From an uncultured Pseudohongiella sp. (GTDB lineage Bacteria > Pseudomonadota > Gammaproteobacteria > Pseudomonadales > Pseudohongiellaceae): 64,000 nucleotides of DNA. Each line of letters starts with the position of its first letter. Position 1 is the first letter of the stretch. Positions 28,469 to 60,943 of this stretch are shown here, one piece after another. The notes below the pieces were generated by a model. It was not told the origin of the DNA and made no database searches. It was given only the letters and a program-made list of their open reading frames with translations. The translations under genes and the position numbers were made by a program. The stretch spans positions 1,854,896 through 1,918,895 of the forward strand of contig OZ245763.1 of the NCBI GenBank assembly GCA_965227635.1. The letters run 5' to 3'.

Positions 28469-31400
28469 ATGGACCTTTTTCGAAGGCTAATGATGCGCAT
28501 AACAATACCAAAGCATGAATACAGTAGGTCGTATGTTGGCGGGAACAAGTTATCTAGGCTAGCTAACCCTGAGCTAGAATTGGACGTAGAGATAAATGAA
28601 AGCCAGCGGAATGGTATATACGAAATACGAACAAGTTTGCCTCCCCCTTTAAATACAATATATCTCTTGAAGCCTAACTCGCGATCTGATGTGCCAGACA
28701 ATGCTTGCAGTTTAAAGTTTGTCATACCTTGCCCCATCAATGAAATCACGCCAGACACAAAACTGAAATGGCATACATATTCGGTTGAAAAGGCGCTACT
28801 TGATCCTAGAGAAATCACTGAATCATGGAAAGACAAGTTTAGATTTGTAGAAGAAAATCTTGAGGAACGAAAGGTAGGGCTAAGGCTGCCACAGATCGGC
28901 GCTCTGCATGCAATTTCTGCATATTTTTCATTAACAAGAAACACTGAGCCAGCGACAATTGTGCTTCCAACAGGAACGGGAAAGACTGAAACAATGCTTT
29001 CAACCGCGGTTTCTGGGCAATGTCAGAAAATACTGGTGCTTGTACCGTCAGATGCGCTAAGAGCTCAAATATCTGAAAAATTCTTGAACCTGGGGTATTT
29101 AAGAGAGTTAGGGGTTATTAGTTTTGATACAGTGAATCCTCACGTTGCGGTTCTTAAGAAAGGTCTTAAGTCTGATGAAGAAGCGTCGGATATAGTCGAG
29201 GGGTCAAATATAATAGTAGCTACAGCTTCCATACTCGCTGCTAGTCAACAGTCCTCTGTCAAACTGATTTGCGAAGCTGCATCACACCTCTTTGTAGATG
29301 AAGCGCATCACATTTCCGCTAATACTTGGTCGTCAATTCGTGAGCTGTTTGAAGGGAAGAAAATATTACAATTTACAGCTACACCATTTCGGAATGACAC
29401 CAAATCACTTGGCGGGAAAATTATCTACAACTACTCAATGGGAGAGGCTCAGGAGGCTGGGTACTTCAAACATATTAATTTGCTTCCAGTAGAAGAATAC
29501 TACGAAAATGAGAAAAACAGAACCATAGCAACTAAGGCAATTGCACAATTAAGAGAAGACCTAAACAATGGATTGGATCATATTGTCCTTGCGCGAGTGA
29601 CTTCAAGAACAAGTGCAAATAACGTAGTAGAGATATATGAACAAATCGCGCCTGAGCATAATCCAATATGCGTGCATTCTGGCAAATTAAAGTCAGAAAA
29701 CTCCGAGAATTTAGAAAGGCTACTATCAAGAGAATCACGAGTTATTGTTTGTGTGGATATGCTTGGTGAAGGTTATGACTTACCGAATCTAAAAATTGCA
29801 GCGATACATGACCATCACAAAAGCCTAGCTGTAACTTTACAATTTATAGGGAGGTTTACCCGCACAGCTGAAAACATTGGGAACGCATCTGTAGTTGTAA
29901 ACATAGCTGAACCTGAGGTGGAGAAAGATTTAGAAAAGCTTTATTCGCAAGGAGCAGACTGGGATGTGGTATTAAGGCGTCTTGCAGAAGACCGCATATC
30001 TCGAGAAGTAAAATTGCAGGAGGTGGTAGACAATCTAAAAGGTAAAGGCAATTTGCATACAGAATTGTCGCTTTGGAATTTAAAGCCGGGGTACTCGGCA
30101 ATGCTATTTCGAGCAACTTGCGAGGAATGGAATCCAGAGAATTTCAAAAATTCACTACCGCGTTGTGAGGAGTATTGGTACTCAATTGCAGATGACGAGA
30201 AGATTTTAGTCATTCTCACTTTACAGAATCTGAAGGTTAAGTGGGGCGACTACGAAGAGCTGAGTGACATAGTATACAAGCTGCTAATTGCCCATTGGGA
30301 TAGTGATAGAAATTCTCTCTACATTTACTCGAACGACTATAAAGCCTTTAGAACTGAACGTTTGGCGCTTGATCTCTGTGGTGAAGAGTGCGAGCTGATG
30401 AGCGGTAACCAAATCTTCAATGTCTTCAACGGCATGGAGTTCCCACTTATCAGAAACCTAGGAGCTTCAAAAGAAGGCGCAATTAGTTTTACTCAGTATT
30501 TTGGTCCAAATGTTACCGATGGTTTGTCGCAGATTGAAGCCTCGCAATCAAAGTTGAGCAATTGTGCAGGTATGGGGTATATCGAAGGGGACCGAGTAAT
30601 CTGGGGGTGCTCAGAAAAGAAAGGGAAAGTTTGGTCCGTCCAAAGTGGTGCCATATCAGATTGGATTGCTTGGGCAAATTCAGCGTGGGACAAAGTCATC
30701 GGTGGCGGGATAGATGAAGAAAATATCACTCGAAACTTTCTCAGGCCGACAAAAATTAATTCAGCCTACGGTGAACATCCAATTACGGTATTGTGGGGGG
30801 AGCATACTGCTTCAGCTCCCGAAGACAGCATTGTTATCCATTTTGGTGATGTTACCGTTCCAATGTATCTAGTTGATCTAGAATTGGTCGAACAACTAGA
30901 GTCTGGAGCATATAGAATTCGGTTCTTTACCGATGACATTGAAGCCACCTATGAATTTCTAATTTCAGATCAAGTGGCTCAAGGGTTCAGGTACACACTC
31001 ATTCAAGGGCCTGAAATATCCATACAGAAAGGGCGAGGAGACCTAAAACCGCTACCTGAATATATGGTCACTGATCCGCTGATTATCAATTATATAGATG
31101 GTTCATTTTCATACAATTGTTACTTGATTAGGGTAACTCAGGAAGTCGGGCGATATGATGCTAACAACATCGAAGTTATTGATTGGGATGGCATCGATAT
31201 TCGCAAAGAATCGATGGGGAAAAATATTGCCCAAGATAGTATTCAGTATAAGTCTTTTGATGAGCTACAGAGTGATTTTGATGTTGTTATAAATGACGAC
31301 AATGCTGGTGAAGCAGCAGATTTAGTTTGTGTTAAGGATTTAGGCGAAGAAATAAATTTGGCGCTTGTTCATTGTAAGTACTCCTCCCGAAATGAAGCGG

Positions 31401-31738
31401 GGGCTAGAGTCAAAGACCTGTATGAGGTGTGTGGACAATGCCAGAAAAGCGTGCGTTGGAAACATGTCGGTCTGCCGAGGTTATTTCAGCATATAAAACG
31501 TAGGGAGGCCACTTGGAGAAGTGAAGGTTACACTCGGTTTCTGAAAGGTCAGACTTCTGACCTTCTTGCATTGGCAAACAAGTCTAGAACAACGCCTTTA
31601 AATCTGCAGATCATCATTGTTCAGCCTGGATTGAGCTTGAACGTCTGTAGCCAAGATATGTTGAGATTATTGGGTAGTACATCACTGTATGTGGAGAAGA
31701 CAGCTAAAGCGAATTTTAGAGTCATTGGAAGCGATTAG
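28469..31738 (+). CDS. SF2 DEAH-box helicase with C-terminal Mrr-like restriction-endonuclease-type motif
   Basis: Motif I PTGTGKTE (aa 167-174), motif II DEAH (277-280), motif III TATP (303-306), motif VI QFIGRFTR (458-465). The C-terminal block GEAADLVCV-x12-LALVHCKYS (aa 947-972) follows the D...(Q/H)xK pattern. Confidence 0.85.
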   Translation: MDLFRRLMMRITIPKHEYSRSYVGGNKLSRLANPELELDVEINESQRNGIYEIRTSLPPPLNTIYLLKPNSRSDVPDNACSLKFVIPCPINEITPDTKLKWHTYSVEKALLDPREITESWKDKFRFVEENLEERKVGLRLPQIGALHAISAYFSLTRNTEPATIVLPTGTGKTETMLSTAVSGQCQKILVLVPSDALRAQISEKFLNLGYLRELGVISFDTVNPHVAVLKKGLKSDEEASDIVEGSNIIVATASILAASQQSSVKLICEAASHLFVDEAHHISANTWSSIRELFEGKKILQFTATPFRNDTKSLGGKIIYNYSMGEAQEAGYFKHINLLPVEEYYENEKNRTIATKAIAQLREDLNNGLDHIVLARVTSRTSANNVVEIYEQIAPEHNPICVHSGKLKSENSENLERLLSRESRVIVCVDMLGEGYDLPNLKIAAIHDHHKSLAVTLQFIGRFTRTAENIGNASVVVNIAEPEVEKDLEKLYSQGADWDVVLRRLAEDRISREVKLQEVVDNLKGKGNLHTELSLWNLKPGYSAMLFRATCEEWNPENFKNSLPRCEEYWYSIADDEKILVILTLQNLKVKWGDYEELSDIVYKLLIAHWDSDRNSLYIYSNDYKAFRTERLALDLCGEECELMSGNQIFNVFNGMEFPLIRNLGASKEGAISFTQYFGPNVTDGLSQIEASQSKLSNCAGMGYIEGDRVIWGCSEKKGKVWSVQSGAISDWIAWANSAWDKVIGGGIDEENITRNFLRPTKINSAYGEHPITVLWGEHTASAPEDSIVIHFGDVTVPMYLVDLELVEQLESGAYRIRFFTDDIEATYEFLISDQVAQGFRYTLIQGPEISIQKGRGDLKPLPEYMVTDPLIINYIDGSFSYNCYLIRVTQEVGRYDANNIEVIDWDGIDIRKESMGKNIAQDSIQYKSFDELQSDFDVVINDDNAGEAADLVCVKDLGEEINLALVHCKYSSRNEAGARVKDLYEVCGQCQKSVRWKHVGLPRLFQHIKRREATWRSEGYTRFLKGQTSDLLALANKSRTTPLNLQIIIVQPGLSLNVCSQDMLRLLGSTSLYVEKTAKANFRVIGSD

Positions 31739-31780
31739 CAGCTCTAATACATTTCTTGTGTTTGCGCTAAATTGAACACC

Positions 31781-33256
31781 ATGGAATCAGACATCCAGGA
31801 ACTAGCCTTACAAATTGACTCAGCGCTTGAGTCTGGCGCCACTGGTGAGCTGGATCGCCTAATTTGTGCGTGCGAAAATCAGCTTGAAAATGCAGAGGGA
31901 CTGACTAGGGTAATTCTTTGGTTCTATATTGCGAATTGCTATTCGGGTATCAATACTTCCCAAGATAACGTCGATTCTGTTTGGAGTTGGGAAAAGAACG
32001 AATTAATCTTTCAAGTTTTATCTCTTCGCAAAGCAGCTTCAGAGCCATCATTCGAATCATCGGATGTCATGATTCGTTGCAAGATATTAACCAATCTTGG
32101 AAATGTACTTAATCAAATAGGTAGGCCCATCGAAGCAATTAGGCTTTGGGATCAAGCATTGAGATACTATCCGATTTTTGCAATGGCTATTGGAAATAAA
32201 GGGAGAGGAGTCACAGAGTATGCCAACTATCTCTACGATCAAGGACATGCCGCGGTACTCGTTGCCGAAGCCAACAAGACGCTTAAGCAACTAACTAATA
32301 AAAGGTTGCTGTGGGACAGTGGGGAAGATACTAGCGCCAGAGCATATTTCATATCTGTTTTTGAGAACAACAACCGTAGCCTCGAAGAGGTGGGTTACGA
32401 TTATGAATTTGATTTAGACCGTTGGGCGCTAGGCAAAACAAAGGGGGAGCGAAAATACAGACAATGGTGCCTTGATCAGAATTTATTTCTTAATCCATTG
32501 AATGACATTATTACTAAAAGTGTGGCGGCGACTGATTCGCTGCACCTTCCAAGTCATACTTATGGGCTTGAAGAGCACCCTAGGTTTCCTGAGTACTATA
32601 ATCATTTAAAACAAGAATTTGTAACTGCAAGGTACTTGTACTATGAGGCAGGACAAGAGAAAAATCATTTTTCAAACCACGAAGTTTTTCTAGTGGATAG
32701 TTATAATGCCACTAGATTCGGATACCGCACCGAACAACTGAAGATGTCGTTCCGAATGGCTTACTCAATCTTTGACAAGGTCGCCCTATTTCTTAACGAC
32801 TATTTTTCCGTTGGTCTTAAAGCTAGTAGTGTTAATTTTAGAAACATATGGGGAAACAGGAGCAAAGATCAGTTTGTTCTGCACCCTTGCTTTGCTAGCA
32901 GTGTGAATTGGCCGCTAAGAGGATTGTATTTCCTCTCAAAAGAATTGTTTGACCCGAATTTCAATGATGTGGCTTCTCCAGATGCTAAAGAGCTGGCGAT
33001 CATAAGAAATCGAATTGAGCATAGGTTTCTATGCATTCAGCATTACTATTCCCAACATGATAGTGATATGGATTTTCAATACTATATTTCAATCGATGAT
33101 TTTGAAATTAAAACACTTCGAATCCTAAGGTTAGCTCGTGAAGCCTTAATTTATCTTTCACTTGCAATGCATCGTGAAGAAAAAATACGCGAATTTGAAA
33201 ACCCGGATTCGGTCAAACTACCTATCTACTCATTTCCCGTAGAAGAAAGGAACTAA
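31781..33256 (+). CDS. TPR-like plus C-terminal HEPN-domain protein (LA2681-like HEPN)
   Basis: TPR-like segment ILTNLGNVLNQIGRPIEAIRLWDQALRYYPIFAMAIGNKG. Rx4H HEPN motif RNRIEH at nt 33005-33022. The track start at 31772 is TTG, and I prefer the ATG at 31781. Confidence 0.75.
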   Translation: MESDIQELALQIDSALESGATGELDRLICACENQLENAEGLTRVILWFYIANCYSGINTSQDNVDSVWSWEKNELIFQVLSLRKAASEPSFESSDVMIRCKILTNLGNVLNQIGRPIEAIRLWDQALRYYPIFAMAIGNKGRGVTEYANYLYDQGHAAVLVAEANKTLKQLTNKRLLWDSGEDTSARAYFISVFENNNRSLEEVGYDYEFDLDRWALGKTKGERKYRQWCLDQNLFLNPLNDIITKSVAATDSLHLPSHTYGLEEHPRFPEYYNHLKQEFVTARYLYYEAGQEKNHFSNHEVFLVDSYNATRFGYRTEQLKMSFRMAYSIFDKVALFLNDYFSVGLKASSVNFRNIWGNRSKDQFVLHPCFASSVNWPLRGLYFLSKELFDPNFNDVASPDAKELAIIRNRIEHRFLCIQHYYSQHDSDMDFQYYISIDDFEIKTLRILRLAREALIYLSLAMHREEKIREFENPDSVKLPIYSFPVEERN

Positions 33257-33293
33257 CAGCAAAGCCTTCCCCTTCTTATCTAAAATGCCCAAA

Positions 33294-33322
33294 GGGGACA
33301 CTAATAGTTTAATAGCTTAAGG
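33294..33322. repeat. Solo arm of the GGGGACACT element
   Basis: GGGGACACTAATAGTTTAATAGCTTAAGG, 38 nt after the HEPN gene stop. No clean partner arm. Confidence 0.6.
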
Positions 33323-33376
33323 AATGTTGAAGTGTATTCATTGGTTGCTGATCTGAAGGGTAGTTATCACTTAGAG

Positions 33377-33476
33377 GGATTCTAGCAACAGATACTCTCA
33401 GGAAATCGAGCCGTCTACGCATCGGGTTCAGCGCTAATAAGTCTCAGGAAGTTGGTGCCCAGATTCGGAAGAATCC
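33377..33476. repeat. ~100-bp direct repeat, copy 1 (diverged)
   Basis: GGATTCTAGCAACAGATACTCTCAGGAAATCGAGCCGTCTACGC...GTTGGTGCCCAG aligns with 33626-33725 along its whole length with scattered mismatches. Confidence 0.75.
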
Positions 33477-33601
33477 ATACACCCTTAAGGCTGTTTCTCC
33501 CCTGCAGGCTTCGCGCTGGCGCGCTCGTAGCAAACTGCTTGCGCAGTTTGTCGAACCACATCGCTGGTTCTCATCCAACCCCCGAACCCCGCGCATAATA
33601 T

Positions 33602-33625
33602 AGCCTCGCAAAGCGAGGCTTTATT
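33602..33625 (+). terminator. Rho-independent terminator-like hairpin
   Basis: AGCCTCGC-AAA-GCGAGGCT followed by TTATT. Confidence 0.55.
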
Positions 33626-33725
33626 GGAATCTAGCAACAGATACTCTGAGCCAATCGAGCCGCCTACGCGTCAGGTTCAGTGCTATTAAGTCTGTGGGGA
33701 GTTGGTGCCAGGGGCGGAATCGAAT
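33626..33725. repeat. ~100-bp direct repeat, copy 2, ending in a tRNA 3'-end-like sequence on the minus strand
   Basis: The reverse complement of 33702-33725 is GATTCGATTCCGCCCCTGGCACCA (T-loop, acceptor and CCA-like). No 5' tRNA half follows. Confidence 0.7.
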
Positions 33726-33778
33726 CTATCGGGGAATCGCAGAAAATGTCAGGTTTTGTTAGGTTTTTGCAATCCATG

Positions 33779-33814
33779 TACCAACAAAAATACCAACAAA
33801 AATACCAACTAAAA
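33779..33814. repeat. Three tandem 12-mers TACCAAC(A/T)AAAA
   Basis: TACCAACAAAAA TACCAACAAAAA TACCAACTAAAA. The palindrome CTGTAGTGCTACAG (33815-33828) follows immediately. Confidence 0.8.
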
Positions 33815-34346
33815 CTGTAGTGCTACAGATGATTGGCAAAATATCATCGTATCAGTTTGCTTATATTTTCTTGCTTATCATCAGACGATTAGCGCAACCC
33901 TCCGCTCTCAAATACCTAAAGAGCGATGTATCTATAGTCTCATCTCGTCTCCGGAACACAGGAGGATGAATAGTGAATTTTCAATAAATGGTAAGGATTG
34001 GTAGGGTATCTGCCCATTTATGTAGCCACCCTTAGGATCGTAATTGTAGGCAACAGATCTGGCGGAATTGTAATTTCATTTCTACCTGGACGCCGAATTG
34101 CGAAGGAATATAACATCCCAGGTTGTCCCAAAAGAGACATTAGGGTTTTCTTGAGCAACTATTCGGAGGTAAGTTCCAGTGAATTCGGCGTAATCTCATC
34201 GACTAAGCAACGCACCAAGCCAGGTGGGCGCATGGAGGTTGATGGAATTATTGCGATGGTTGATTTGACGGGATTTCAGGTGGGCATATGTGCAAGAAAC
34301 TGACTATTGGGTTGCAAAATTATTTTACAGCCATGGTGATTAATAG

Positions 34347-35769: not shown

Positions 35770-35800
35770 TTGTACCTGTAGTAGGTTCAGGTCCTATACT
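35770..35800 (+). promoter_or_regulatory. MerR-type promoter (19-bp spacer) for the HMA-thioredoxin gene
   Basis: TTGTAC-CTGTAGTAGGTTCAGGTCC-TATACT, with an imperfect dyad ACCTG...CAGGT. It lies 39 nt upstream of the ATG at 35839. Confidence 0.55.
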
Positions 35801-35838: not shown

Positions 35839-36543
35839 ATGAAAATGCGCTCCCAAACCTTTGCCAATGCACTTATTCTGACTATGGCAGGATTGATTTT
35901 GTCATTTTCAGTAAAAGCTGCAGCTGTGGATGCCGAGATGTCACAGGTAACCCTGTTCGTCGAGGGAATGATGAAAAGCCGCGGCGGCGTCACTTGAATG
36001 AGCTGACCCGATAGCGTGGTAGCAGCTCTGTCAGAGTTGCCCGGAATCCAAGAACAAAATATTACTGTAATTCTCGACCGAGATGCGTTTACTGTCGGAT
36101 ATGATAGTGAGCTGGTTTCGTTAGACCATATGTATGAGGCAATTCTAGAGTTGGGCTATAGCCCTGGGATAGAGGAACTTGGTATCGGCGAGACTGATTC
36201 AGATTCAAGCGGTAGTATTCCAGAACCTATTGCGTCCGCGCTTACTGAAGCCATTAATGGTGACAAGTTAATCTTCATCGACTTTTTTGCTGAGTGGTGT
36301 ATTGCCTGTAAAGTGCTGGAGGAGAACGCTCTTAATAACTCAGCAGTCCAACAGGTATTAGAATCGTATGTTGTATTGAAAGTCGATACAGACGCATATG
36401 CAGATGCGGCCAGGTTTTATAATGTGGTAGGAATGCCGACGCTTCTGGTGGTGGATTCAGCTGGAGAAGAAATTTACAGATCAGTAGGTCTTATCGAGCC
36501 TGAAGAACTTAGCGCGAAGTTAAGTCAGCTAGCCATCAAATAG
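35839..36543 (+). CDS. Periplasmic HMA-like domain / thioredoxin-like fusion with two in-frame TGA codons (putative UxxU selenoprotein, or a pseudogene)
   Basis: One frame reads signal peptide MKMRSQTFANALILTMAGLILSFSVKAAA, then VTLFVEGMMKSRGGVT-TGA-MS-TGA-PDSVVAALSELPGI...AILELGYSP (HMA fold), a linker, and a thioredoxin fold with WCIACK. The TGAs are at 35995-35997 and 36004-36006. The track only lists the part from GTG 36016. Confidence 0.6.
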
Positions 36544-36927
36544 GCTATCAATGATGGGACATTGTGCGACATTGCCTTGGCTACACTGATCTGCCATTTC
36601 GACTAGCACTTGTTCCATTCGCTTTAAGTCGCCAATCTTATCCCGTACTTCTTTAGCATGAACTAAAGTCAGTTCATGTACTTGCTTGCACGTGTAGTTT
36701 CCAGTATCCACCAGACTCATAAGGCTGATAATTTCTTTCAGCGTAAAACCAAGGCTTCTGCATTTGTGAATAAAGTGCAGGCGTTTGACGTCTTCATCGT
36801 CATAGATCCTCCTGCCATTAGAAGCTCGAACAGCTTTTGGCAATATGGCTTCGCGCTCATAGTAGCGGATCGTCTCGATATTCACGCCGGTTCGATCCGA
36901 TAGCTCCCCAATTGCGTACGGTTTCAT
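36529..36927 (-). CDS. merR: MerR-family metal-responsive regulator, Hg(II)-MerR-like
   Basis: HTH YAIGELSDRTGVNIETIRYYEREAILP. It has the Cys pattern of MerR (TCKQVHEL...; CSQGNVAQCPII). It is divergent from merT. Confidence 0.8.
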   Translation of the reverse strand: MKPYAIGELSDRTGVNIETIRYYEREAILPKAVRASNGRRIYDDEDVKRLHFIHKCRSLGFTLKEIISLMSLVDTGNYTCKQVHELTLVHAKEVRDKIGDLKRMEQVLVEMADQCSQGNVAQCPIIDSLFDG

Positions 36928-36951: not shown

Positions 36952-36982
36952 TTGATCCTGTAGTGACTACAGGATATAGAAT
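36952..36982 (+). promoter_or_regulatory. merT promoter/operator, MerR-type
   Basis: TTGATC-CTGTAGTGACTACAGGATA-TAGAAT with a 19-bp spacer. It contains the perfect dyad CCTGTAGT-G-ACTACAGG (36957-36973). Confidence 0.8.
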
Positions 36983-37030
36983 GGCCCTCAGCGTGTGAAA
37001 TTGCAAGGTATATCCGTGTTCGTAACTGGC

Positions 37031-37402
37031 GTGAAAAGTAGCAATAACGTGCGAGATCGAAGTGACGGCAAATGGCTAGCCACAGCAAGTATCGTTGGCG
37101 CTATCGTTGCTTCTTCTTGCTGTATTGCGCCCTTGCTGTTTGTAAGTGTTGGAATTAGCGGCGCATGGATTGGCAATCTGACAGCTTTGGAGCCGTACAA
37201 AATCTATTTTTTGGGGACCACAACGCTCTTTCTCGGCGCGGGGATTTGGCACCTGTATTTTAAACGACAGCAAGAGTGCATTGGCGATAGTTATTGTTCC
37301 AGGCCAATGTCTGGACTTATTACTAAAGCAGCGCTTTGGATTGCCATCATGCTTGTCATCGCATCGGCTACAGTCGATTTTTGGGCACCACTATTTTACT
37401 AA
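37031..37402 (+). CDS. merT: Mercuric transport protein MerT
   Basis: SSCCIAPLLFVSVGISGAWIGNLTALEPYK matches the MerT TM1 CC motif and loop. There is a second Cys pair, CIGDSYC. The start is uncertain (GTG 37031 or GTG 36995). Confidence 0.85.
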   Translation: MKSSNNVRDRSDGKWLATASIVGAIVASSCCIAPLLFVSVGISGAWIGNLTALEPYKIYFLGTTTLFLGAGIWHLYFKRQQECIGDSYCSRPMSGLITKAALWIAIMLVIASATVDFWAPLFY

Positions 37403-37430
37403 CGACGTTTTGACTTGGAGATTCGCAGGT

Positions 37431-37790
37431 ATGAAAAAATCAAACTTATTTTTCGGCATGATGGCATTGTTAGCTATTGCTACTTATTCCGGGATAGGCC
37501 TCGTTTCGACAATTCAGGCCGAAAACGCGGTGCAATCTAAATTATCGATCTCAGAGCAATCCGTTTCGTTTTCTATTGAACGAATGACTTGCGCGGCATG
37601 CCCCGTCACCGTTAGTAAAGCAATGAAGGGTGTTGAAGGCGTGAGAGATGTTTCAGTTGATTACGAGACCAAAACTGCAACGGTAGCTTTTAACCCCGAA
37701 CTTACGAACATTGAAATCATTGGAGCCGCTTCAACCAATGCTGGGTACCCGGCTGAATTGATAAGTAAAGTGCCAGAAGAGAGTTTATAG
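37431..37790 (+). CDS. merP: Periplasmic mercury-binding protein MerP
   Basis: Signal peptide plus an HMA domain with MTCAACPVTVSKAMKGVEGV. GGAG Shine-Dalgarno 11 nt upstream. Confidence 0.85.
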   Translation: MKKSNLFFGMMALLAIATYSGIGLVSTIQAENAVQSKLSISEQSVSFSIERMTCAACPVTVSKAMKGVEGVRDVSVDYETKTATVAFNPELTNIEIIGAASTNAGYPAELISKVPEESL

Positions 37791-37804
37791 ATAGAGAGAC
37801 ATTG

Positions 37805-38044
37805 ATGTTATTGGAACACACTATGAGCAATACTTTAGCTGACATAACTCTTGATTCAGTCTTAACATGTCCGCACTGTGGTCATGCTCAGGAGGAAGTT
37901 ATGCCTACTGAAGCCTGCCTATTTTTCTATGAGTGCAAGCAATGCAAAAATTTGCTCAAACCCAAAGTAGGCGATTGCTGTGTTTTCTGTTCCTTCGGAT
38001 CAGTGGCATGCCCGCCGATCCAGGTTGGAAGTTGTTGTAGTTAA
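37805..38044 (+). CDS. Small Cys-rich GDCCVxC-motif protein
   Basis: CPHCGH, CKQCKN and GDCCVFCSFGSVACPP. I recall an NCBI family named 'GDCCVxC domain-containing (seleno)protein'. This copy is all-Cys. Confidence 0.7.
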   Translation: MLLEHTMSNTLADITLDSVLTCPHCGHAQEEVMPTEACLFFYECKQCKNLLKPKVGDCCVFCSFGSVACPPIQVGSCCS

Positions 38045-38066
38045 ATAGAAAACAGGAGACATTATT

Positions 38067-38612
38067 ATGTCTTTAGAATTGGTTGATGTAGGCAGTCTTA
38101 CGCGACCTGGTCCAATCGGTAGATTTGTAAGACTAGTTTTGGGGACACTTTGCTTGTACGGATTGTGGCAGCTTCTAGAAGTTGCTCCCAATGTTATCGA
38201 GCGTCCAGTTGATTTATTGCCAAACTTGAGCTTGATGATTCTTGTTGTCTTCTGTGTCTTTAACTATGTAGTCAATATTGGATTCAGCAAGGATTGGAAC
38301 AACTATCCTCTTATATTTTCTCTGTCGTTATTTCTATTAGTAGCACTGGTTGGTTTTTTGGCTAATGGCGACCCTGGCTCGACCTTTCTTGGGGTTCTAA
38401 TAGTTTTGTGGATGAGTTATTTCTATGCTCACTTGGGAGTTTCTTTTTTGCTGGCGTCTATACTCGCTACTCCGGGATGCGAAATGCGAGCAATACCAGA
38501 ATTGTTTGGTCGAATGATTAATAAAGCAACGAAAGAACACCACTGCCCCTCAAGTATCATCTCCGGAATTGATCGTTGGGAATATAAGCGGCAACGTAAG
38601 CTTCATAGTTAA
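38067..38612 (+). CDS. Membrane protein with conserved C-terminal Cys pair (unknown function)
   Basis: 181 aa, about 4 TM segments, with ATPGCEMRA and HHCPSS motifs near the C-terminus. Confidence 0.6.
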   Translation: MSLELVDVGSLTRPGPIGRFVRLVLGTLCLYGLWQLLEVAPNVIERPVDLLPNLSLMILVVFCVFNYVVNIGFSKDWNNYPLIFSLSLFLLVALVGFLANGDPGSTFLGVLIVLWMSYFYAHLGVSFLLASILATPGCEMRAIPELFGRMINKATKEHHCPSSIISGIDRWEYKRQRKLHS

Positions 38613-39249: not shown

Positions 39250-39324
39250 GTTGTACCTCAACAATTCGACTCGGACAAACTGTCTGAGGCGTTGCTTGGC
39301 CTCACAATTTGCGGGAGAAAGACT

Positions 39325-40578
39325 GTGAACCTTAAATGTTTAGCGATTGTGGCTTGCGTCATGATCGCGAGCGCCACGTGTAATGCGCAGGAGATGCCAA
39401 CTGGCACGATCTCCTTGCGGGATGCGCTCGAAGCCACTCTGAATTCCAATCCAAGCCTCAGGAGTTTTCCTCTGCGCAATGAGGCGCTGCTGGGCAACAG
39501 AGAGATTGCCGACTTAAAACCGCCCTTCACAATAGGTGCCAATCTCGAGGATGCCCTGGGCACCGGTGACATAAGAGACTTCACCGGGGCAGAGGCAACT
39601 TTACGACTGTCCAATATTGTTGAGATGGGTGGGAAGCGGGCGGCTCGGGTAGGGGTTGTTAACCGAAGAATCGACACACTTGCTGCAGAGCAACGGGTTG
39701 CAGAGCTTGATTTGCTGATAGAAGTTGTACGGCGGTTTATTGACGTGGCAACAGCACAGGAACAAGTTGATCTACAAGCGCAATCTACTGCAATTGCCCA
39801 GCAGACAGTGCGCGCGATTCAGCCACTGGTCACAGCCGGTCAGGCACCGCAACTGGAATTGGGTCGCGCAAACGCAGCTTTGTTGCGAGCACAATTAGCG
39901 GAGCAGGCGGCGGCTGCCAGACTTGAGAGCGCCAGGATACGTTTGGCAAATATGTGGGCCAGCAATACACCGCAATTTGACGCCGTATTGGCAGACTTTC
40001 GGACCGTTGGACAAGCGGAATCGATTGAAACAGTCTTGGCAGGCCTTGCGGAAAATCCAGATATCGAATTCTATGCAGCAGAATCTCGTCTGTTGGAAGC
40101 ACAACTGCGCTTGGCGCAATCACGGCAGCAGGGCGATATATCCTGGTCAGCAGGAATTCGGCACTTAAGAGAGTTTGATGATACTGGCGTAGTACTGGGT
40201 GTCACTGTTCCTCTGTTCAACAAAGAACGTGCTTCCGGTGCAATCCGTACCGCACGTGCGAATCTTCAGGAAGTCGAGACTCGACGCCTCACAGCGCTCA
40301 ATGCGATTGAAGGGGAGATTAGATCTCTGCATCAGTCGTTGCAACAAGCAATTTTGGAAGTAAATACCTTACAGCAACAAGTAATTCCCGTTCTGCAAGA
40401 TGTGCAGCGGCAAACGCAGGCAGCCTATGCGGCTGGCAATTACAGTTATGTGGAATTTATAAGTGCCCAGCAAGAGTTTTTAGATGCTCAGCTATCACTG
40501 ATCTCCAGCGCCGGCAATGCTCACAAAATACGAGCTGAAATTGAGCGCTTGAGTGGAATTCCACTGTCTGGACAATAA
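39325..40578 (+). CDS. czcC: Outer-membrane efflux protein, CzcC/TolC family
   Basis: TolC-family repeats. I prefer the GTG start at 39325, after GGGAGAAAG. It directly precedes the MFP and RND genes. Confidence 0.8.
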   Translation: MNLKCLAIVACVMIASATCNAQEMPTGTISLRDALEATLNSNPSLRSFPLRNEALLGNREIADLKPPFTIGANLEDALGTGDIRDFTGAEATLRLSNIVEMGGKRAARVGVVNRRIDTLAAEQRVAELDLLIEVVRRFIDVATAQEQVDLQAQSTAIAQQTVRAIQPLVTAGQAPQLELGRANAALLRAQLAEQAAAARLESARIRLANMWASNTPQFDAVLADFRTVGQAESIETVLAGLAENPDIEFYAAESRLLEAQLRLAQSRQQGDISWSAGIRHLREFDDTGVVLGVTVPLFNKERASGAIRTARANLQEVETRRLTALNAIEGEIRSLHQSLQQAILEVNTLQQQVIPVLQDVQRQTQAAYAAGNYSYVEFISAQQEFLDAQLSLISSAGNAHKIRAEIERLSGIPLSGQ

Positions 40579-40591
40579 CGAGGACAAATTA

Positions 40592-44697
<4,106 letters not shown>

Positions 44698-44706
44698 ACA
44701 GTCAAC

Positions 44707-45585
44707 ATGCATGATCACACGCACCATAGCGATCAGAGCAGCCAACGGATTGGCTGGGCATTCGTGTTAAATGTTGGTTTCACTATCATAGAATTTGTGG
44801 GCGGCCTGCTTACCAACAGCACAGCCATTATGGCTGACGCCGTCCATGATCTTGGTGACAGTCTTTCAATCGGAACAGCATGGGTTCTGAGCCTGTTATC
44901 CAAAAAGAAAGCGAGCAGTTCATTTACTTACGGCTATAAGCGACTCTCTTTGATTGGTGCATTGATCAACGGAATTGTGCTTATAGCGGGTTCTGTATGG
45001 GTGCTGCTACAGGCGCTTCCCCGCCTGTTCGATCCAGTGATGCCAGAAGCAGAAGGCATGCTAGCGCTGGCAATTCTGGGTGTTGTGGTAAACGGATTTG
45101 CTGCTTATAAACTAAGTGCAGGAACGACGCTCAATGAAAAAGTACTCAATTGGCATTTACTTGAAGATGTATTGGGTTGGGCAGCAGTTCTAATTGTCTC
45201 AATCGTACTATTGATTGTGGAATTGCCAATCCTGGACCCGTTACTCGCTGTGGGATTTACACTGTTCATTCTGTTTAACGTAGCCAGAAATACTTGGCAC
45301 GCTGTCAAACTTTTTGTTCAGGCAGTACCTGAGCATGGACTAATCGAGAAAGTAAGGAAGGAGCTGCTAACTATTTCTCAAGTGGATTCAATTCATCATG
45401 AGCATGCGTGGTCGCTCGACGGTGAGTCAACAGTCTATACGGCTCATTTGGAAATGAGTTCTCCGATGTCATCAGAAGAACAGCTCTGGATTAAGAATCA
45501 GGTTGCAAAGAAACTCCAGGAATTTGAGTTTTCACATACAACAATTGAACTGGAATTTCCGCAAGAGGATTGTAGAGATGATTAG
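44707..45585 (+). CDS. czcD: Cation diffusion facilitator (CzcD/ZitB-like)
   Basis: His-rich N-terminus. CDF signature LLTNSTAIMADAVHDLGD. Six TM segments plus a C-terminal cytoplasmic domain. Confidence 0.85.
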   Translation: MHDHTHHSDQSSQRIGWAFVLNVGFTIIEFVGGLLTNSTAIMADAVHDLGDSLSIGTAWVLSLLSKKKASSSFTYGYKRLSLIGALINGIVLIAGSVWVLLQALPRLFDPVMPEAEGMLALAILGVVVNGFAAYKLSAGTTLNEKVLNWHLLEDVLGWAAVLIVSIVLLIVELPILDPLLAVGFTLFILFNVARNTWHAVKLFVQAVPEHGLIEKVRKELLTISQVDSIHHEHAWSLDGESTVYTAHLEMSSPMSSEEQLWIKNQVAKKLQEFEFSHTTIELEFPQEDCRDD

Positions 45586-45631
45586 TAGTGCTAGCTATTA
45601 TCTATGTGTTAAGTGAGCGGTGTAATTACAA

Positions 45632-46492
45632 ATGAGTATGTCAGATTCAATGGAAACCCAAGGCCAATCTAGTGAAAATATCTACGTAAGTAGATTTCGC
45701 GTGCCCAAGATGGATTGCCCATCGGAGGAGAACTTGATTCGCATGCAACTCGAACCTATCGAATCAGGTTTGAAACTGGAATTCGATATACCCAATAGAA
45801 TTGTGCGGGTTACTCACAAAAGCAATTCTGAAAAAATCGATGAAGCGATGCTTGGTTGTGGCTTCGGCTCAATAATGGAAGAGACCAGGCCGGCTGAGGA
45901 ACAAGAAAAGACTGCATATTTCAGCTCCAGTCAATCTGAAAATGATCAGGAAGCAAACACACTAAAATTATTGTTGGCAATCAACGCTTTCATGTTTGTT
46001 TTTGAACTCACGGTTGGGTGGATCGGACAATCCACCGGACTAATCGCCGATTCAATGGATATGTTTGCGGATGCGGCAGTTTATGGCTTGGCTCTATTTG
46101 CTGTCGGAAAAAGTGCCGGAAATAAACTGAATGCTGCACATCTGGCTGGTTGGCTGCAGATGATTCTTGCATTTGGTGCATTAAGCGAAGTGCTTAGGCG
46201 ATTCATATTCGGCAGCGAGCCGGTTTCTGTTCTGATGATGGGAATAGGTTGCATAGCGTTAGTTGCAAACGTTTCCTGCTTGTTTTTGATCTCCAAGAAA
46301 AAAGACCGTGGCGCGCATATGCGAGCGAGCTATATCTTCTCAGCCAATGATGTCATTGCCAATTTGGGTGTGATTGTCGCTGGGATTCTGGTGGCCTGGA
46401 CCGGTTCCAGATATCCGGATTTGGCTATAGGTCTTATTATTGGAATCGTTGTTCTAACCGGGGCAGTCCGAATACTCAGAATTCGTAACTAG
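45632..46492 (+). CDS. Cation diffusion facilitator-like transporter with N-terminal HMA-like domain
   Basis: N-terminal FRVPKMDCPSEENLIRMQL (MDCPxEE-type HMA), then a TM domain with LIADSMDMFADAAVYG. Confidence 0.75.
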   Translation: MSMSDSMETQGQSSENIYVSRFRVPKMDCPSEENLIRMQLEPIESGLKLEFDIPNRIVRVTHKSNSEKIDEAMLGCGFGSIMEETRPAEEQEKTAYFSSSQSENDQEANTLKLLLAINAFMFVFELTVGWIGQSTGLIADSMDMFADAAVYGLALFAVGKSAGNKLNAAHLAGWLQMILAFGALSEVLRRFIFGSEPVSVLMMGIGCIALVANVSCLFLISKKKDRGAHMRASYIFSANDVIANLGVIVAGILVAWTGSRYPDLAIGLIIGIVVLTGAVRILRIRN

Positions 46493-53474: not shown

Positions 53475-53601
53475 GACAGGATAGGTCCGCCTGCTACATA
53501 CGCAGGCAGCTTCTTCAAACTTATCTAATAGCACTAGATTCGCGTGTCAATTCGACTTCGCGGCCTTTGTGCTGTGTTTGAGTAATTGTTGGGAAATTGA
53601 A

Positions 53602-54906
53602 ATGGGAACTTGGAAAGATTCTACGAAAATGGCGACTGCTCTGCTGTGGTGGTCTTTGAGCATATGGATGATGCCTGTGCATGGGCAATTCATTCCAGAT
53701 GATGAACTACTGTTAGCAGACTTGACGCGAGCGGTCATCCGACAAAACGCTGGCTTAACTTCTCGTGAACTGCGAGTTCGAGCGAGCCGCGCACTGACTG
53801 AGAGCGCGGGAGCGCTTGATGATCCCAGGGTGAGTTATTCTGTAGCGCCATCTTCTATTGGCACGGATATACCCAGTGACTTTGGCAATGCATTGAGAGT
53901 GCGGCAAACGTTTCAGGTCTCTCAATTATTTCCATGGCCAGGAAAGCGGCGACTTCGCACTGAGCTAGCCGAAGCGCGGGCAGAGATCGAAGAAGCGAAC
54001 TACGAGCAGTTACTGGTTTCACTGGTTCAGCAAGTCAGGAGTTTGTGGTCAGAACTATGGTTCGCCGATCAGGCGTTAACGGTTAATGCTGAACATTTGG
54101 CTTTGTTGAATGACCTTGAAACTGTGGCATCGACGCAGTATGCAAACGGACTGGGGTTGCAACAGGACGTGTTGCAAATTCAGACCAGCCGGGTGGCATT
54201 GCAACACAGGGAACTGGTACTGAATCAGGAAATTCGACGCTTGCAGGCCCGGATCAATGACCTCCTCAACCAGTCCGCCGACACCTCCCTCGGGCTGCCA
54301 GGGCAACTACTGCCCATTCCGACATTGCCTGGTCGCAACAATCTTCTGGAGTGGGTGCTGGAATCCGAGCCTGAGTTAATAGCTTTGCAGGCAAGATCAA
54401 GATTGGCGCTGAGAAATAAAGAGCTGGTGGAGTTGGAAGACTTTCCAGATCTTCAGGTCAACGCTGGCTACAACGAACTCTGGAACGATATTGATCAACG
54501 CACGCAGATTGGGATCAGTCTCAATATTCCATTGGACTTCGGTAAACGCTCAGCTCGAAAAGCGGCGGCGGGTTTTAACTACGCCAGTTCGCGAGCCGAC
54601 GTTGCTCGCTTGCGCAGCACTTTGGCAGCAGACCTGGAACAATTGCTTTCTACAGAGCAAGAGCTTGCTCATAGCATTGAGTTGTTCGAGACCGAGTTAA
54701 TTCCCAAGGCCGAACAAACTCTTGACGCAGCCAGCGCCAACTTTCGGGGCGGTGGCGGCAACTTTCAAACCTTGAACCAAGCGCAGCAACAATTGCTGAA
54801 TCTGCGACTTCAGATATCAGAAATGCAGGCTGACCGGCTGATCAGTATCAGCCAAATTGACAAATTAAGTGGGGGCCGACTGTGGCCCGTGGAGACTGAA
54901 CAATGA
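53602..54906 (+). CDS. cusC: Outer-membrane efflux protein, CusC/TolC family
   Basis: TolC-family repeats. The start is uncertain (53569, 53602 or 53629). The stop overlaps the next gene. Confidence 0.8.
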   Translation: MGTWKDSTKMATALLWWSLSIWMMPVHGQFIPDDELLLADLTRAVIRQNAGLTSRELRVRASRALTESAGALDDPRVSYSVAPSSIGTDIPSDFGNALRVRQTFQVSQLFPWPGKRRLRTELAEARAEIEEANYEQLLVSLVQQVRSLWSELWFADQALTVNAEHLALLNDLETVASTQYANGLGLQQDVLQIQTSRVALQHRELVLNQEIRRLQARINDLLNQSADTSLGLPGQLLPIPTLPGRNNLLEWVLESEPELIALQARSRLALRNKELVELEDFPDLQVNAGYNELWNDIDQRTQIGISLNIPLDFGKRSARKAAAGFNYASSRADVARLRSTLAADLEQLLSTEQELAHSIELFETELIPKAEQTLDAASANFRGGGGNFQTLNQAQQQLLNLRLQISEMQADRLISISQIDKLSGGRLWPVETEQ

Positions 54907-56687
54907 AAGCCATAATGAGTTTATTAATTGTAGCAATAGTTGCCGGAGTCATCGGTTTTCTTTCCGCCAACTTTATTTCCATGGAGCGGGGAGGCATGCA
55001 GGAATCGATGGTCTCCTCCTCAGAAAGGCAGCCACTTTACTGGGTGGCGCCGATGGACTCGAACTTCAGGCGCGATGCACCAGGACTGTCACCGATGGGA
55101 ATGGACCTGATTCCAGTCTATGAAGAGCCCGATGGGGAAACCAATGCCGTCAGGGTCGCCGCGACGATTCAGCAAAACCTGGGGTTGAGAACCGCCAAGG
55201 CGAAGCGTAGCGATTTCGCGCGAGATGTAAAGGCAGTCGGATACACGCGTTGGAACGAGGCGACCATTGAAATGCTACATCCGCGCGCAGAGGGCTGGTT
55301 GGAAGTCTTCAACCTGGCCAGTGTTGGTGACCAGGTTAAAGCTGGCCAGGTGATCTATGAATTGTATGCGCCTAACCTGGTCAGCGCTCAACAGGAATTT
55401 ATCACTGCGCGTCAGGCGGGTAACCAGACATTGGCTGCTCTGGCCCAGGAACGTTTACTAGCGCTGGGATTTACCCCGCGCCAGGTCGATGAACTCGCCA
55501 ACAATGGTAATACGAGCAGTCGGCTGGTTTATCGCGCCGTCGATAACGCGCTGGTGCTGTCACTGGGTACCAGGAGCGGCAACTACGTGCAACCTGCGAC
55601 CACTATCGCCACCCTGGCATCGCTGGATTCAATTTGGGTCGATGTGGATATATTTGAAACAGATGCTGCGAATCTGGAAGTGGGTCTCGAAGCCGCTATT
55701 GAATTTCCAGCCTTTCCCGGTGAAACCTGGATGGGTGAAGTGAGTTACATCTATCCGGAACTGGACCGAGGCAGCAGAACTCTGCGAGTTCGACTGGTCA
55801 TTGAAAATGAAGATCATCGGCTTAAGCCCAATATGTTCGCCAATGTCGCCATTGCCGTTGATCCTCGTCGCGACGTGCTCGCCGTTCCACGGGAAGCGGT
55901 CCTACGCTCAGGATCAGGCTCGCGGCTTATTGTCCTTCGCGACGATGGCCAATTTGAACCTCGCGCCGTTCGTACTGGATTCAGCAGTGGTGAACAGATA
56001 GAGATTCTGCAAGGACTCGCCGTCGGTGAGACCGTTGTTACTTCCGGGCAATTCCTGCTCGATGCCGAAGCCAATGGTGAGCAAGCGTTGGCGCGGCTCG
56101 ACGCGGCGAGCGAATCCACTTCTGAAAATATGGACATGGATATGGACAGAACTGCCAGTTCGTCAGTAGATCAAGAGGCCGTTTATTCTACAACCGGTCG
56201 TATCGTCAGCATGATGAACGATGGCATGGTGACATTGGCTCATCAGCCGGTCGCAGAACTGAACTGGCCGGCAATGACGATGAGTTTCACATCTGTTCCG
56301 GAAGTTAATCTCAATGAATTTTCAGTCGATGAAACGGTGCGCTTCGAGTTTCGTCAGCTTGAAGACGGTGGTTATCAAATCCTGCTTATGGACAACGCGG
56401 GTGCGCCAACGAGTATAGACAGGAATGTCAGTGCATCAGGCGATCAGTTAACTGTTTATTCCACAAGCGGTCGCATTGTTAGCATGATGAACGATGGCAT
56501 GGTGACATTGGCTCATCAGCCGGTCGCAGAACTGAACTGGCCAGCTATGACGATGAGTTTCACCACTGTCCCGGATGTTAATCTTAATGAGTTTGCAGTC
56601 GATGACACGGTGCGCTTTGAATTTCATCCGTTAGAAGATGGCAGCTATGAAATCTTGATGATGGAAGAGACGGAGGCAAATCAATGA
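54903..56687 (+). CDS. cusB: RND membrane fusion protein CusB fused to two tandem CusF-like domains
   Basis: MFP core, then two ~91-aa repeats each containing GMVTLAHQPVAELNWPAMTMSF (CusF-type metal site context). ATGA overlaps on both sides. Confidence 0.85.
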   Translation: MKAIMSLLIVAIVAGVIGFLSANFISMERGGMQESMVSSSERQPLYWVAPMDSNFRRDAPGLSPMGMDLIPVYEEPDGETNAVRVAATIQQNLGLRTAKAKRSDFARDVKAVGYTRWNEATIEMLHPRAEGWLEVFNLASVGDQVKAGQVIYELYAPNLVSAQQEFITARQAGNQTLAALAQERLLALGFTPRQVDELANNGNTSSRLVYRAVDNALVLSLGTRSGNYVQPATTIATLASLDSIWVDVDIFETDAANLEVGLEAAIEFPAFPGETWMGEVSYIYPELDRGSRTLRVRLVIENEDHRLKPNMFANVAIAVDPRRDVLAVPREAVLRSGSGSRLIVLRDDGQFEPRAVRTGFSSGEQIEILQGLAVGETVVTSGQFLLDAEANGEQALARLDAASESTSENMDMDMDRTASSSVDQEAVYSTTGRIVSMMNDGMVTLAHQPVAELNWPAMTMSFTSVPEVNLNEFSVDETVRFEFRQLEDGGYQILLMDNAGAPTSIDRNVSASGDQLTVYSTSGRIVSMMNDGMVTLAHQPVAELNWPAMTMSFTTVPDVNLNEFAVDDTVRFEFHPLEDGSYEILMMEETEANQ

Positions 56688-59827: not shown

Positions 59828-60301
59828 AATATCGTCGTTGGAAAAAGTAAAAAATATAGTTAGTACGAGATGTGTATATGACTTAGATGTTTAAAAACTA
59901 GTTTCGGTGACCGAACGCCATAACTAGATGTGACTAGTAGGTGTGACTAGGGTTAAGGTGTACGGTAAAGAGTACGAATTCCAAGAATTCTTCAAACCAG
60001 AGGGCTTCCGGGAATTTACTTACAGTTCGAGGATGGGTTTGTAATTTCAGATTTCTGATTACTTTTTTAATAGGAAAGTATCGGTTCTATACAGTCTCAC
60101 GAGCACAAATGATCCACTTTCAATCTTGGAGATACTAGCATGGACAAGGTGTGTGCTTAATTGATTGGCTAGTTAATACTTGGTAATTTTCAATTGTTGA
60201 TTCGACGCTCCAATTTGTTTCTTCATAACTTGCACATTTGGACTCTAAGAAACGAAACGTGGGAGTAAGGTTCAGGTTGTTATATAGGAGCATCAAATCA
60301 T

Positions 60302-60332
60302 TTGACTTTAGAGTGGCTCTAAGTGTTTTACT
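60302..60332 (+). promoter_or_regulatory. MerR-family (ZntR/CueR-like) promoter with 19-bp spacer
   Basis: TTGACT-TTAGAGTGGCTCTAAGTGT-TTTACT with the dyad TTAGAG-N3-CTCTAA. Its layout parallels E. coli PzntA (TTGACTCTGGAGTCGACTCCAGAGTGTATCCT, quoted from memory). Confidence 0.4.
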
Positions 60333-60384
60333 TCTGGATTCGTGCTATTTTAGTGATTAGAATTTTTATATCCCCACTAAATGT

Positions 60385-60780: not shown

Positions 60781-60943
60781 TGGGTCTGTAGGCCAGTATC
60801 TCTGTTTCATTCTTACTAGGTTGAAGTTCATTCCTTTCGGAAGGCACTAACCGAAGTCTTGCATTACCTCAGACCCTAATCTGAAAACTCACGCTGTTTG
60901 TTGTGGGTGCGTTTTCGCACTCGAGTAATTTTAGGAGTTTGCA

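Follow-up and report, generated by a model that had tools for sequence, protein, structure and literature searches.

The stretch of DNA analysed here, 64,000 nucleotides (nt) of contig OZ245763.1 from an uncultured Pseudohongiella sp. (hereafter the window), carries an unusual gene on its forward strand at 35839-36543. A single frame runs from an ATG at 35839 to a TAG at 36541-36543 and is interrupted only by two TGA codons, at 35995 and 36004. It reads MKMRSQTFANALILTMAGLILSFSVKAAAVDAEMSQVTLFVEGMMKSRGGVT-TGA(35995-97)-M-S-TGA(36004-06)-PDSVVAALSELPGIQ...WCIACK...AIK, with ...VTLFVEGMMKSRGGVT as the residues between the signal peptide and the first TGA, and comprises in this order a signal peptide, an HMA domain, a linker and a thioredoxin domain. 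The list of open reading frames (ORFs) of the window holds only two pieces of it, one of 52 amino acids (35839-35997) and one of 175 amino acids that starts from a GTG at 36016. A first-pass annotation of the same DNA had described this frame, had pointed out that the ORF list shows only its 3' part from GTG 36016, and had proposed a selenoprotein with a UxxU motif within a mercury locus; all of its statements on the sequence of the frame proved correct. If both UGAs are read as selenocysteine (Sec), the complete coding sequence has 234 codons, including those for Sec53 and Sec56.

The putative signal peptide (MKMRSQTFANALILTMAGLILSFSVKAAA; 35839-35925) was recognised by eye from a basic n-region, a hydrophobic core and a small-x-small (A-x-A type) cleavage motif, all of which are kept in homologues, and residues 1-33 show low predicted local distance difference test (pLDDT) values in the AlphaFold model of a homologue with 86% identity. 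Its presence implies export to the periplasm. When the protein was searched with U replaced by C, Pfam assigned both following domains: HMA (PF00403; 27.8 bits, cut-off 24.8) and thioredoxin (PF00085; 50.6 bits, cut-off 23.5). For the HMA domain (35938-36171) the AlphaFold model gives beta 34-42, alpha 56-65, beta 75-78, beta 83-89, alpha 95-104 and beta 108-111. This order, beta-alpha-beta-beta-alpha-beta, agrees with the HMA fold, and helix alpha-1 begins directly after the second TGA. The motif T-U-M-S-U-P is thereby placed at the loop/alpha-1 junction, and UMSUP can be aligned by eye with CAACP in the MerP-like protein that the window itself encodes. The metal loop, EGMMKSRGGVT-U-MS-U-P, is extended, having seven residues more from 'GM' to the first ligand than the canonical GMTCxxC. 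An acidic linker rich in Ser and Gly follows (36172-36228); it is presumably flexible, being variable in the homologue alignment and having a pLDDT below 50 at residues 112-124. The C-terminal domain (36229-36537) has the motif W-C-I-A-C with Cys154 (36298-36300) and Cys157 (36307-36309). It is a DsbD-gamma-type thioredoxin: besides Pfam, the NCBIfam DsbD model was matched over model positions 466-572, and nine of the ten best Foldseek matches were C-terminal domains of DsbD (1vrs_D, 2fwf and 1uc7 among them; 35-37% identity, E-values of 6e-9 to 8e-8). The active site WC[VI]ACK is common to this domain and the gamma domain of Escherichia coli DsbD.

A search of 5.8 billion proteins, again with the U-to-C sequence as query, returned 132 relatives of two kinds. 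Those of the first kind comprise approximately 175 amino acids and start just past the second TGA, and those of the second kind are seemingly 'full-length' (222-238 amino acids) and all possess a Trp at both positions (GGVTWMSWPDS). The latter (P0001, P0005, P0007 and others) apparently arose when gene callers switched to genetic code 4, in which TGA encodes Trp, on short contigs. Such Trp-translated public gene calls look like a systematic artefact that hides a selenoprotein, and it would be worthwhile to screen for them. At the DNA level, TGA was found at both sites in each of the 40 sequences checked, i.e., in the window and in 39 intact genome loci, which stem mostly from Pseudohongiella, SAR86 and other marine gammaproteobacterial metagenome-assembled genomes; a fortieth genome locus, L040, is frameshifted and stands outside this count. 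With the metagenome loci added, both codons are TGA in 105 of 105 sequences. When 1.84 billion cluster representatives were searched exhaustively with HMMER, eight much more distant members were added; seven of them read TGA-x-x-TGA, whereas L109 reads TGA-L-A-TGC. Thus, in a comparison drawn from 40 loci of genomes, 66 of metagenomes and the 8 distant representatives, the first UGA (35995-35997, predicted Sec53) is TGA in 113 of 113 homologous sequences including the window, and the second (36004-36006, predicted Sec56) in 112 of them, down to approximately 30-38% protein identity. This pattern is far beyond chance, which bears out the earlier argument that two stops exactly at the CxxC ligand positions are unlikely to be random nonsense hits. 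It also answers the question whether relatives carry Cys codons: except for L109 they have TGA, not TGT or TGC, at both sites.

The exception is informative, since L109 (659-670: ...SGAT-U-LA-C-TD...) is the sole member with Cys at the second ligand, and the offset of the hairpin described below is unchanged in it. Another variant, L113 (3770-4783), possesses an extra HMA domain with an ordinary Cys motif (GLACPFC) C-terminal to the UxxU-HMA and the thioredoxin. At 50% identity the family falls into approximately 40 database clusters, at 90% into more than 130. Its members are listed there as truncated proteins, labelled 'thioredoxin family' or 'hypothetical', with others mistranslated to carry Trp at the ligands, and the names that NCBI and JGI give to the truncated pieces are 'thioredoxin family protein', 'DsbD' and 'hypothetical'. 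Complete or near-complete genomes with the gene include the Pseudohongiella chromosomes OZ244938.1, OZ253535.1, OZ254078.1, OZ245938.1 and OZ243108.1, as well as CBDDGA010000002.1 and the metagenome-assembled genome D1-CHI-14 (JAVJRC01), whose gene is 97% identical. A search of a plasmid collection gave no match to the gene.

One might suspect a pseudogene or an artefact of assembly or sequencing, in which two nonsense mutations had struck a decaying HMA-thioredoxin gene, and one related copy (L040/L105) does appear frameshifted. However, the window's gene contains no further stops or frameshifts, and neither relatives with Cys codons at both sites nor other decay were found. Because the same two TGAs recur in more than 110 independent assemblies, at 30-99% identity and with strong purifying selection on both sides of them, this explanation is excluded for practical purposes. 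The frameshifted copies themselves (matches at approximately 10001-10304 in L040 and 6001-6304 in L105) represent one lineage with a frameshifted or partial gene (...GGVTLNELTRKCRSS...), which is probably a true pseudogene of the family.

Selection on the interrupted frame was examined with a codon alignment of 77 distinct genes. In codons 27-52, upstream of the first UGA, the residues are invariant and yet all synonymous codons are used, with 1.5-2.3 bits at 4- and 6-fold sites. Conserved residues combined with free synonymous change indicate selection at the protein level, and thus the supposed 52-amino-acid fragment is indeed read in this frame. The opposite pattern was found at AGC55, GCT63, CTG64 and TCA65, in which not one synonymous change occurs among the genes that encode the majority residue (71-77 of the 77), and this points to selection at the RNA level. 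All 77 main-clade genes have AGC at codon 55 (Ser, 36001-36003), located between the UGAs, and none has AGT or TCN; distant members have other residues at this position. The hairpin described below does not explain this constancy; it may reflect the context of the UGA or an alternative fold that pairs this region with 36023-36028.

These findings also bear on a more conventional interpretation with two separate products, namely a secreted peptide of 52 amino acids that ends at TGA 35995 and a leaderless thioredoxin protein of 175 amino acids from GTG 36016. It would match the ORF lists and most database annotations. However, the GTG is replaced by GTC or GTT in 20 of 35 variants, so that the downstream ORF lacks a conserved start, and gene callers begin it at assorted downstream codons (137-186 amino acids). 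Furthermore, beta-1 of the HMA fold would be severed from alpha-1, leaving a cytoplasmic DsbD-gamma-like domain on three-quarters of an HMA fold, for which there is no rationale, and the distance of 9 nt between the TGAs is perfectly conserved together with the frame. We consider two separate products hardly credible.

A recoding signal for UGA is expected downstream, and such a structure is present. The predicted bacterial Sec insertion sequence (SECIS) at 36022-36040 (GCAGCUCU-GUC-AGAGUUGC) is built from codons 62-67, at an offset of +28 to +46, and consists of an 8-bp stem, GCAGCUCU pairing with AGAGUUGC, below an apical loop G-U-C. It has a folding energy of -10.3 kcal/mol (z = -2.7), and its loop lies 32 nt from the first UGA and 23 nt from the second. 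All of 60 distinct sequences form the hairpin in one of two registers: 91% of cells are paired and the rest belong to a register with one bulged U, which was found in 18 main-clade sequences and two distant ones. Compensatory changes on both sides were found in 16 cells, spread over four of the eight pairs. The hairpin scores 0.247 for covariation, compared to 0.184 for shuffled alignments (none of 500 reached the observed value) and to at most 0.104 for slid registers. Distant members have the hairpin at the same offset with other letters and, in several cases, the loop GGA. For example, the pairs of L110 are U-A, G-C, G-U, G-C, U-G, C-G, C-G and U-A with the loop GGA, and the outer pairs of L115 are C-G, A-U and G-C. 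A published model of bacterial SECIS elements requires a loop of 3-9 nt that begins with G[G/U], a stem of 4-16 bp, a distance of 16-37 nt between UGA and loop and a minimum free energy of -7.5 kcal/mol or lower (PMC13188914). The hairpin agrees with all four of these constraints, with respect to both UGAs.

Another hairpin had been put forward before as the recoding signal, at 36000-36028. It can be drawn (GAGCTG at 36000-36005, CAGCTC at 36023-36028; -16.1 kcal/mol for a 50-nt fold, z = -1.8), but we rejected it as SECIS. It shows zero covariation in the main clade and a single covarying pair when distant members are included, in which it is broken. While it can pair in the main clade, it is mutually exclusive with the hairpin at 36022-36040, as both compete for the CAGCUC arm. 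In L107, L110, L111 and L113-L115 a second small hairpin holds the second UGA (nt +10 to +25 after the first, e.g., UGACCG-AACG-CGGUCA); main-clade members lack it or form it only weakly.

From the sequence evidence, the two in-frame TGAs very probably encode Sec, and we hold it as highly likely that the gene is a genuine selenoprotein gene. The earlier proposal of a UxxU HMA-thioredoxin selenoprotein thus appears well founded, considering the conserved TGAs, the selection on both sides of them, the UxxC homologue and the covarying SECIS-type hairpin. Some observations nevertheless speak against it. Searches of the window and of 1.23 Mb of related loci revealed no selA, selB or selD and no gene for tRNA(Sec), which in Gammaproteobacteria may lie within selB; only approximately 20 kb were covered per genome. 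Neither tblastn with approximate sequences of E. coli SelA, SelB and SelD against the window and the loci, nor ARAGORN on 115 loci, nor tRNA(Sec) and Rfam scans of the window gave a match. Since so little of each genome was covered and the protein queries were approximate, this negative is weak, and the hosts are presumed to be capable of decoding Sec. Rfam gave no SECIS match even at a permissive threshold, with chance snoRNA-like matches only, which is expected for a bacterial SECIS. A single SECIS would have to serve two UGAs 9 nt apart, which is plausible. Finally, no full Cys-form orthologue of this architecture was found in searches of 5.8e9 and 1.84e9 sequences, respectively. Consequently, the argument that TGA at Cys positions reveals a Sec/Cys family pair, as made in the first-pass annotation, rests on the one UxxC variant L109 and on the alignment to the ordinary CxxC of HMA domains; full Cys forms do not complete the pair, and the family appears to be essentially one with obligate Sec.

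The public sequences with Trp at both positions and the missing Sec machinery (within the approximately 20 kb per genome) could be taken to indicate read-through without Sec, by near-cognate Trp or Cys tRNAs and stimulated by the hairpin, or an altered genetic code. Yet TGA is the ordinary stop of 12 of the 39 long open frames in the window, which argues that the code is not reassigned, and the gammaproteobacterial hosts use code 11. In addition, it is precisely the Cys ligand positions that the two codons occupy, and in one homologue the second of them is Cys; the hairpin combines a loop of the SECIS type (G[U/G]) with the right spacing; and Trp at both metal ligands would make no structural sense. 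Such decoding is therefore very improbable. Regarding further selenoprotein genes, two candidates in the window were rejected, one being a PEP-CTERM protein at its normal TGA and the other non-coding. A screen for conserved in-frame TGAs of the Sec/Cys type across the 1.23 Mb of loci yielded only antisense and alternative-frame artefacts.

Besides its coding part, the gene has a predicted promoter of the MerR type, read from the sequence of the forward strand: a -35 box TTGTAC (35770-35775) and a -10 box TATACT (35795-35800) are separated by a 19-nt spacer that holds an operator dyad, CCTGTA...TTCAGG (35775-35792). A standard promoter scan with spacers of 16-18 nt misses it because of the 19-nt spacer. 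Of 72 distinct upstream regions, 43 share the layout TTGnnn-N19-TAnnnT with CTGTAG/TACAG, and the number rises if deviations of 1 nt are allowed. Adjacent and convergent lies a gene for a MerR-family regulator (36529-36927, reverse strand), recognised by the Pfam domains MerR_1 and MerR-DNA-bind. It reaches 132 bits with the MerR model TIGR02051 (cut-off 150.85) and 116 bits with that for CadR/PbrR, likewise below the cut-off. Its residues Cys80, Cys115 and Cys123 are, as we presume from the literature on CueR and MerR, those of a divalent-metal sensor. A merR homologue is located within 9 kb of the gene in 70 loci, mostly on the opposite strand at +535 to +590 nt, i.e., in convergent orientation. 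The 3' ends of the selenoprotein gene and merR overlap by 15 nt (36529-36543) with no terminator between them, and this convergence recurs in most of the 70 loci. Induced transcription of either gene would run antisense into the other, and a regulatory loop could form.

A second predicted promoter of this kind, on the forward strand at 36952-36982 between the divergent merR and merT, comprises a -35 box TTGATC, a 19-nt spacer and a -10 box TAGAAT. Its spacer contains a perfect dyad, CCTGTAG-TGA-CTACAGG (36957-36973), with half-sites identical to those of the selenoprotein promoter, and the dyad CTGTAG-N3-CTACAG is present between merR and merT in 39 of 66 distinct loci. A candidate promoter of merR itself lies on the reverse strand at 36999-36971. 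At the selenoprotein gene we thus find the traits of a promoter that is presumably controlled by a MerR-family regulator, namely the spacing of 19 nt (19-20 nt being typical), the dyad in the spacer and the adjacent merR-family gene. This conserved arrangement seems to support a role of the product in metal handling.

Which metal is a different question. The operon divergent from merR (36995-38612, forward strand) encodes a MerT-like protein (36995-37402), a MerP-like protein with the motif CAAC (37431-37790), a GDCCVxC protein (37802-38044) and a protein that we call orf181 (38067-38612). The MerT-like protein scores 86.9 bits (cut-off 150) and the MerP-like protein 70 bits (cut-off 92.55), both under the NCBIfam cut-offs. 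A canonical mer operon comprises merR, merT and merP plus merA; here no merA was found in the 64-kb window and no pyridine-nucleotide disulfide reductase among the window ORFs scanned. Across the family, merTP is located beside the gene in 17 of 105 loci, compared to 31 for the GDCCVxC gene and 25 for orf181. The designation as mercury locus is therefore only partly right, as far as can be read from these genes. Genes similar to merR, merT and merP do exist, but the term over-reads the locus: all three are below the cut-offs, merA is missing, the surroundings form a multi-metal island, and merTP is rarely a partner, its place being taken in most loci by an operon of the GDCCVxC gene and orf181. 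This island (10202-12924, 39292-46492 and 53569-63861) comprises czcCBA, two transporters of the cation diffusion facilitator type, cusCBA and two copA/copB pairs; the membrane-fusion protein of cusCBA carries a C-terminal CusF domain.

The GDCCVxC family does have selenoprotein members, as the first-pass annotation stated: NF041374, the equivalent of GOS_B, bears the name '(seleno)protein'. The GDCCVxC neighbour in the window is a Cys form, and no in-frame TGA was found in the neighbouring GDCCVxC genes, all of which are Cys forms. The gene orf181 nearly always follows the GDCCVxC gene. It encodes a multi-pass membrane protein with the conserved Cys motifs TPGCE and HHCP, belongs to no Pfam or NCBIfam family and has 313 database relatives, all 'hypothetical'. 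It may be a membrane partner of the system. Between L041 and the window, selenoprotein, MerR and MerT are 99-100% identical, whereas MerP is 43% and the GDCCVxC protein 56% identical, which suggests that recombination had a breakpoint within the divergent operon. At 28469-33256, directly before the metal island, a 1089-amino-acid ResIII/DEAD-box helicase is encoded beside a 494-amino-acid HEPN_LA2681 protein, and the pair looks like a defence module. The subsequent 1.1 kb or so (33260-34340), between the HEPN gene and a glyoxalase-family gene, contains no ORF above 101 amino acids but only short overlapping frames.

How might such a protein work? We envision an exported protein of approximately 205 residues after cleavage of the signal peptide, with two Sec residues. 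UGA53 and UGA56 would both be read as Sec, the single hairpin at 36022-36040 recruiting SelB with Sec-tRNA(Sec), and the Sec pair would take the CxxC metal-ligand positions of an HMA domain of the MerP/CopZ type. A flexible linker would tether this domain to the DsbD-gamma-type thioredoxin with its WCxxC. In the oxidising periplasm the U-x-x-U motif is expected to close to a diselenide. The tethered thioredoxin could re-reduce it and might in turn be recharged by a membrane reductase, DsbD or CcdA. A soft divalent metal, for example Hg(II), Cd(II) or Pb(II), would subsequently be held very tightly by the two selenolates and be sequestered or passed to co-regulated membrane proteins, either MerT/MerP or GDCCVxC/orf181. 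Metal would switch the gene on by way of the neighbouring convergent regulator of the MerR family, which would act on the gene's own MerR-type promoter. Taken as a whole, an exported two-Sec HMA-thioredoxin protein with one SECIS, metal binding and MerR-type control is a likely explanation of the locus. To the specific mechanism of a diselenol metal site that is maintained by its reductase we would give a slightly better than even chance.

Several points tell against this functional model. It stands on sequence and predicted structure; the AlphaFold model comes without confident inter-domain geometry, with a predicted template modelling score of 0.51 and a pLDDT below 50 in the loop; and the locus, which lacks merA and has a regulator that falls below both the MerR and the CadR/PbrR cut-offs, points to no particular metal. 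Accepting a selenoprotein with two Sec residues, one could alternatively regard the UxxU-HMA mainly as a redox module, i.e., a diselenide/selenol relay fed by the DsbD-gamma-like domain. Its substrates would be oxidised partners (GDCCVxC, MerP), metal-thiolate complexes or metalloid oxyanions. In DsbD the gamma domain passes electrons to another domain, and most prokaryotic selenoproteins are redox proteins with UxxC or CxxU motifs (PMC13188914). Moreover, the metal loop is atypically long, with its seven extra residues, and the lack of Cys orthologues suggests that chemistry specific to selenium is required. However, fold and ligand positions are those of a metal-binding HMA domain, with UMSUP aligning with the MerP motif CAACP; the promoter is of the metal-sensor type, in a metal-resistance island; and the closest curated UxxU family is named 'metal-binding'. 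A mainly redox role is therefore unlikely, and metal binding by the Sec pair remains our preferred interpretation.

If this interpretation is correct, selenium availability would be tied directly to the way in which oceanic bacteria such as Pseudohongiella, SAR86 and their relatives handle Hg, Cd or Pb, and the tolerance of abundant, aerobic marine Gammaproteobacteria to heavy metals would be linked to the supply of selenium. The family is widespread in marine bacteria, and gene callers truncate or mistranslate it. With a two-Sec protein as the real product, both the selenoproteomes and the metal-resistance inventories of marine bacteria would have been under-counted. A periplasmic Se2 site with a tethered reductase would represent a natural design for very tight and oxidation-resistant capture of soft metals, and might be of interest for bioremediation or sensing of Hg and Cd. 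Two UGAs with one compact, covarying SECIS could furthermore offer a clean system in which to study how tolerant SelB-dependent decoding is of spacing. Across both UGAs, the predicted product offers the searchable peptide stretch ...SRGGVT-U-MS-U-PDSVVAALSELPGI....

Compared to known systems, the protein passes no selenoprotein model of NCBIfam (June 2026), none of whose models represents its architecture. An inventory of prokaryotic selenoproteins from 2026, with 119 families, includes NF041115 and no HMA-thioredoxin fusion, and targeted literature searches (HMA/MerP-thioredoxin selenoprotein; Pseudohongiella with selenocysteine) brought up no prior description. The 'MerP' selenoprotein of GOS-2008 was considered as such a description and dismissed, having a different sequence. 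Whether the protein represents an undescribed family with obligate Sec, i.e., an exported diselenol metal trap or chaperone of aerobic marine Gammaproteobacteria with its own DsbD-gamma reductase, one SECIS and a MerR-type promoter, is to our mind an even call. A UxxU motif as such has a precedent in the selenoprotein SelL, reportedly described by Shchedrina et al. in 2007. SelL and the Prx-like UxxU selenoproteins likewise have two Sec residues, occur in aquatic or marine hosts and are expected to form a diselenide, but there the fold is peroxiredoxin/thioredoxin-like and UxxU is its redox motif, whereas in the present protein the thioredoxin keeps CxxC and UxxU resides in a metal-binding fold (PMC2398784). 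Sec as ligand of soft metals in mer-like systems is found in the MerT/CopZ fusion-like selenoprotein (NF045683) and in MerT-family selenoproteins. However, NF045683 is a membrane MerT fused to HMA, while MerT and MerP of the window are separate Cys-form genes and fall under its cut-off of 375.

The gamma domain of DsbD is a periplasmic thioredoxin that hands electrons to a partner domain. With 36% identity it is the best match to residues 131-233 in both structure and sequence (PDB 1vrs, 2fwf, 1uc7). In contrast to DsbD, the alpha and beta domains are missing here, the full-length model NF001419 is reached with 67.8 bits (cut-off 330) over the gamma region only, and the presumed electron acceptor is the tethered UxxU-HMA instead of DsbD-alpha. 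With MerP and CopZ (PF00403; TIGR02052) the protein has in common the fold and a pair of ligands where the loop meets alpha-1, and MerP too is periplasmic, has a signal peptide and is linked to merR and merT. It differs from MerP by Sec in place of Cys, by a score of 25.3 bits (cut-off 92.55), by the fusion to a reductase and by a gene that is transcribed separately from merTP and converges on merR. Its closest known counterpart is NF041115, 'UxxU_metal_bind, metal-binding (seleno)protein', which likewise combines an HMA-type fold with Sec at both ligands and is predicted to bind heavy metals. NF041115 is a stand-alone domain of approximately 74 residues, to which our protein is related without being a member (30.2 bits, cut-off 95; E = 3.5e-7 over residues 33-108). 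Relative to it, the present protein adds a signal peptide, a loop longer by seven residues, the DsbD-gamma-like domain and a MerR-type promoter of its own, and has no Cys orthologues. Among the HMA-type UxxU selenoproteins, the novelty of this family would thus lie in its export, its extended loop, its built-in reductase, its MerR-type promoter, its lack of Cys orthologues and a single SECIS that serves two UGAs.

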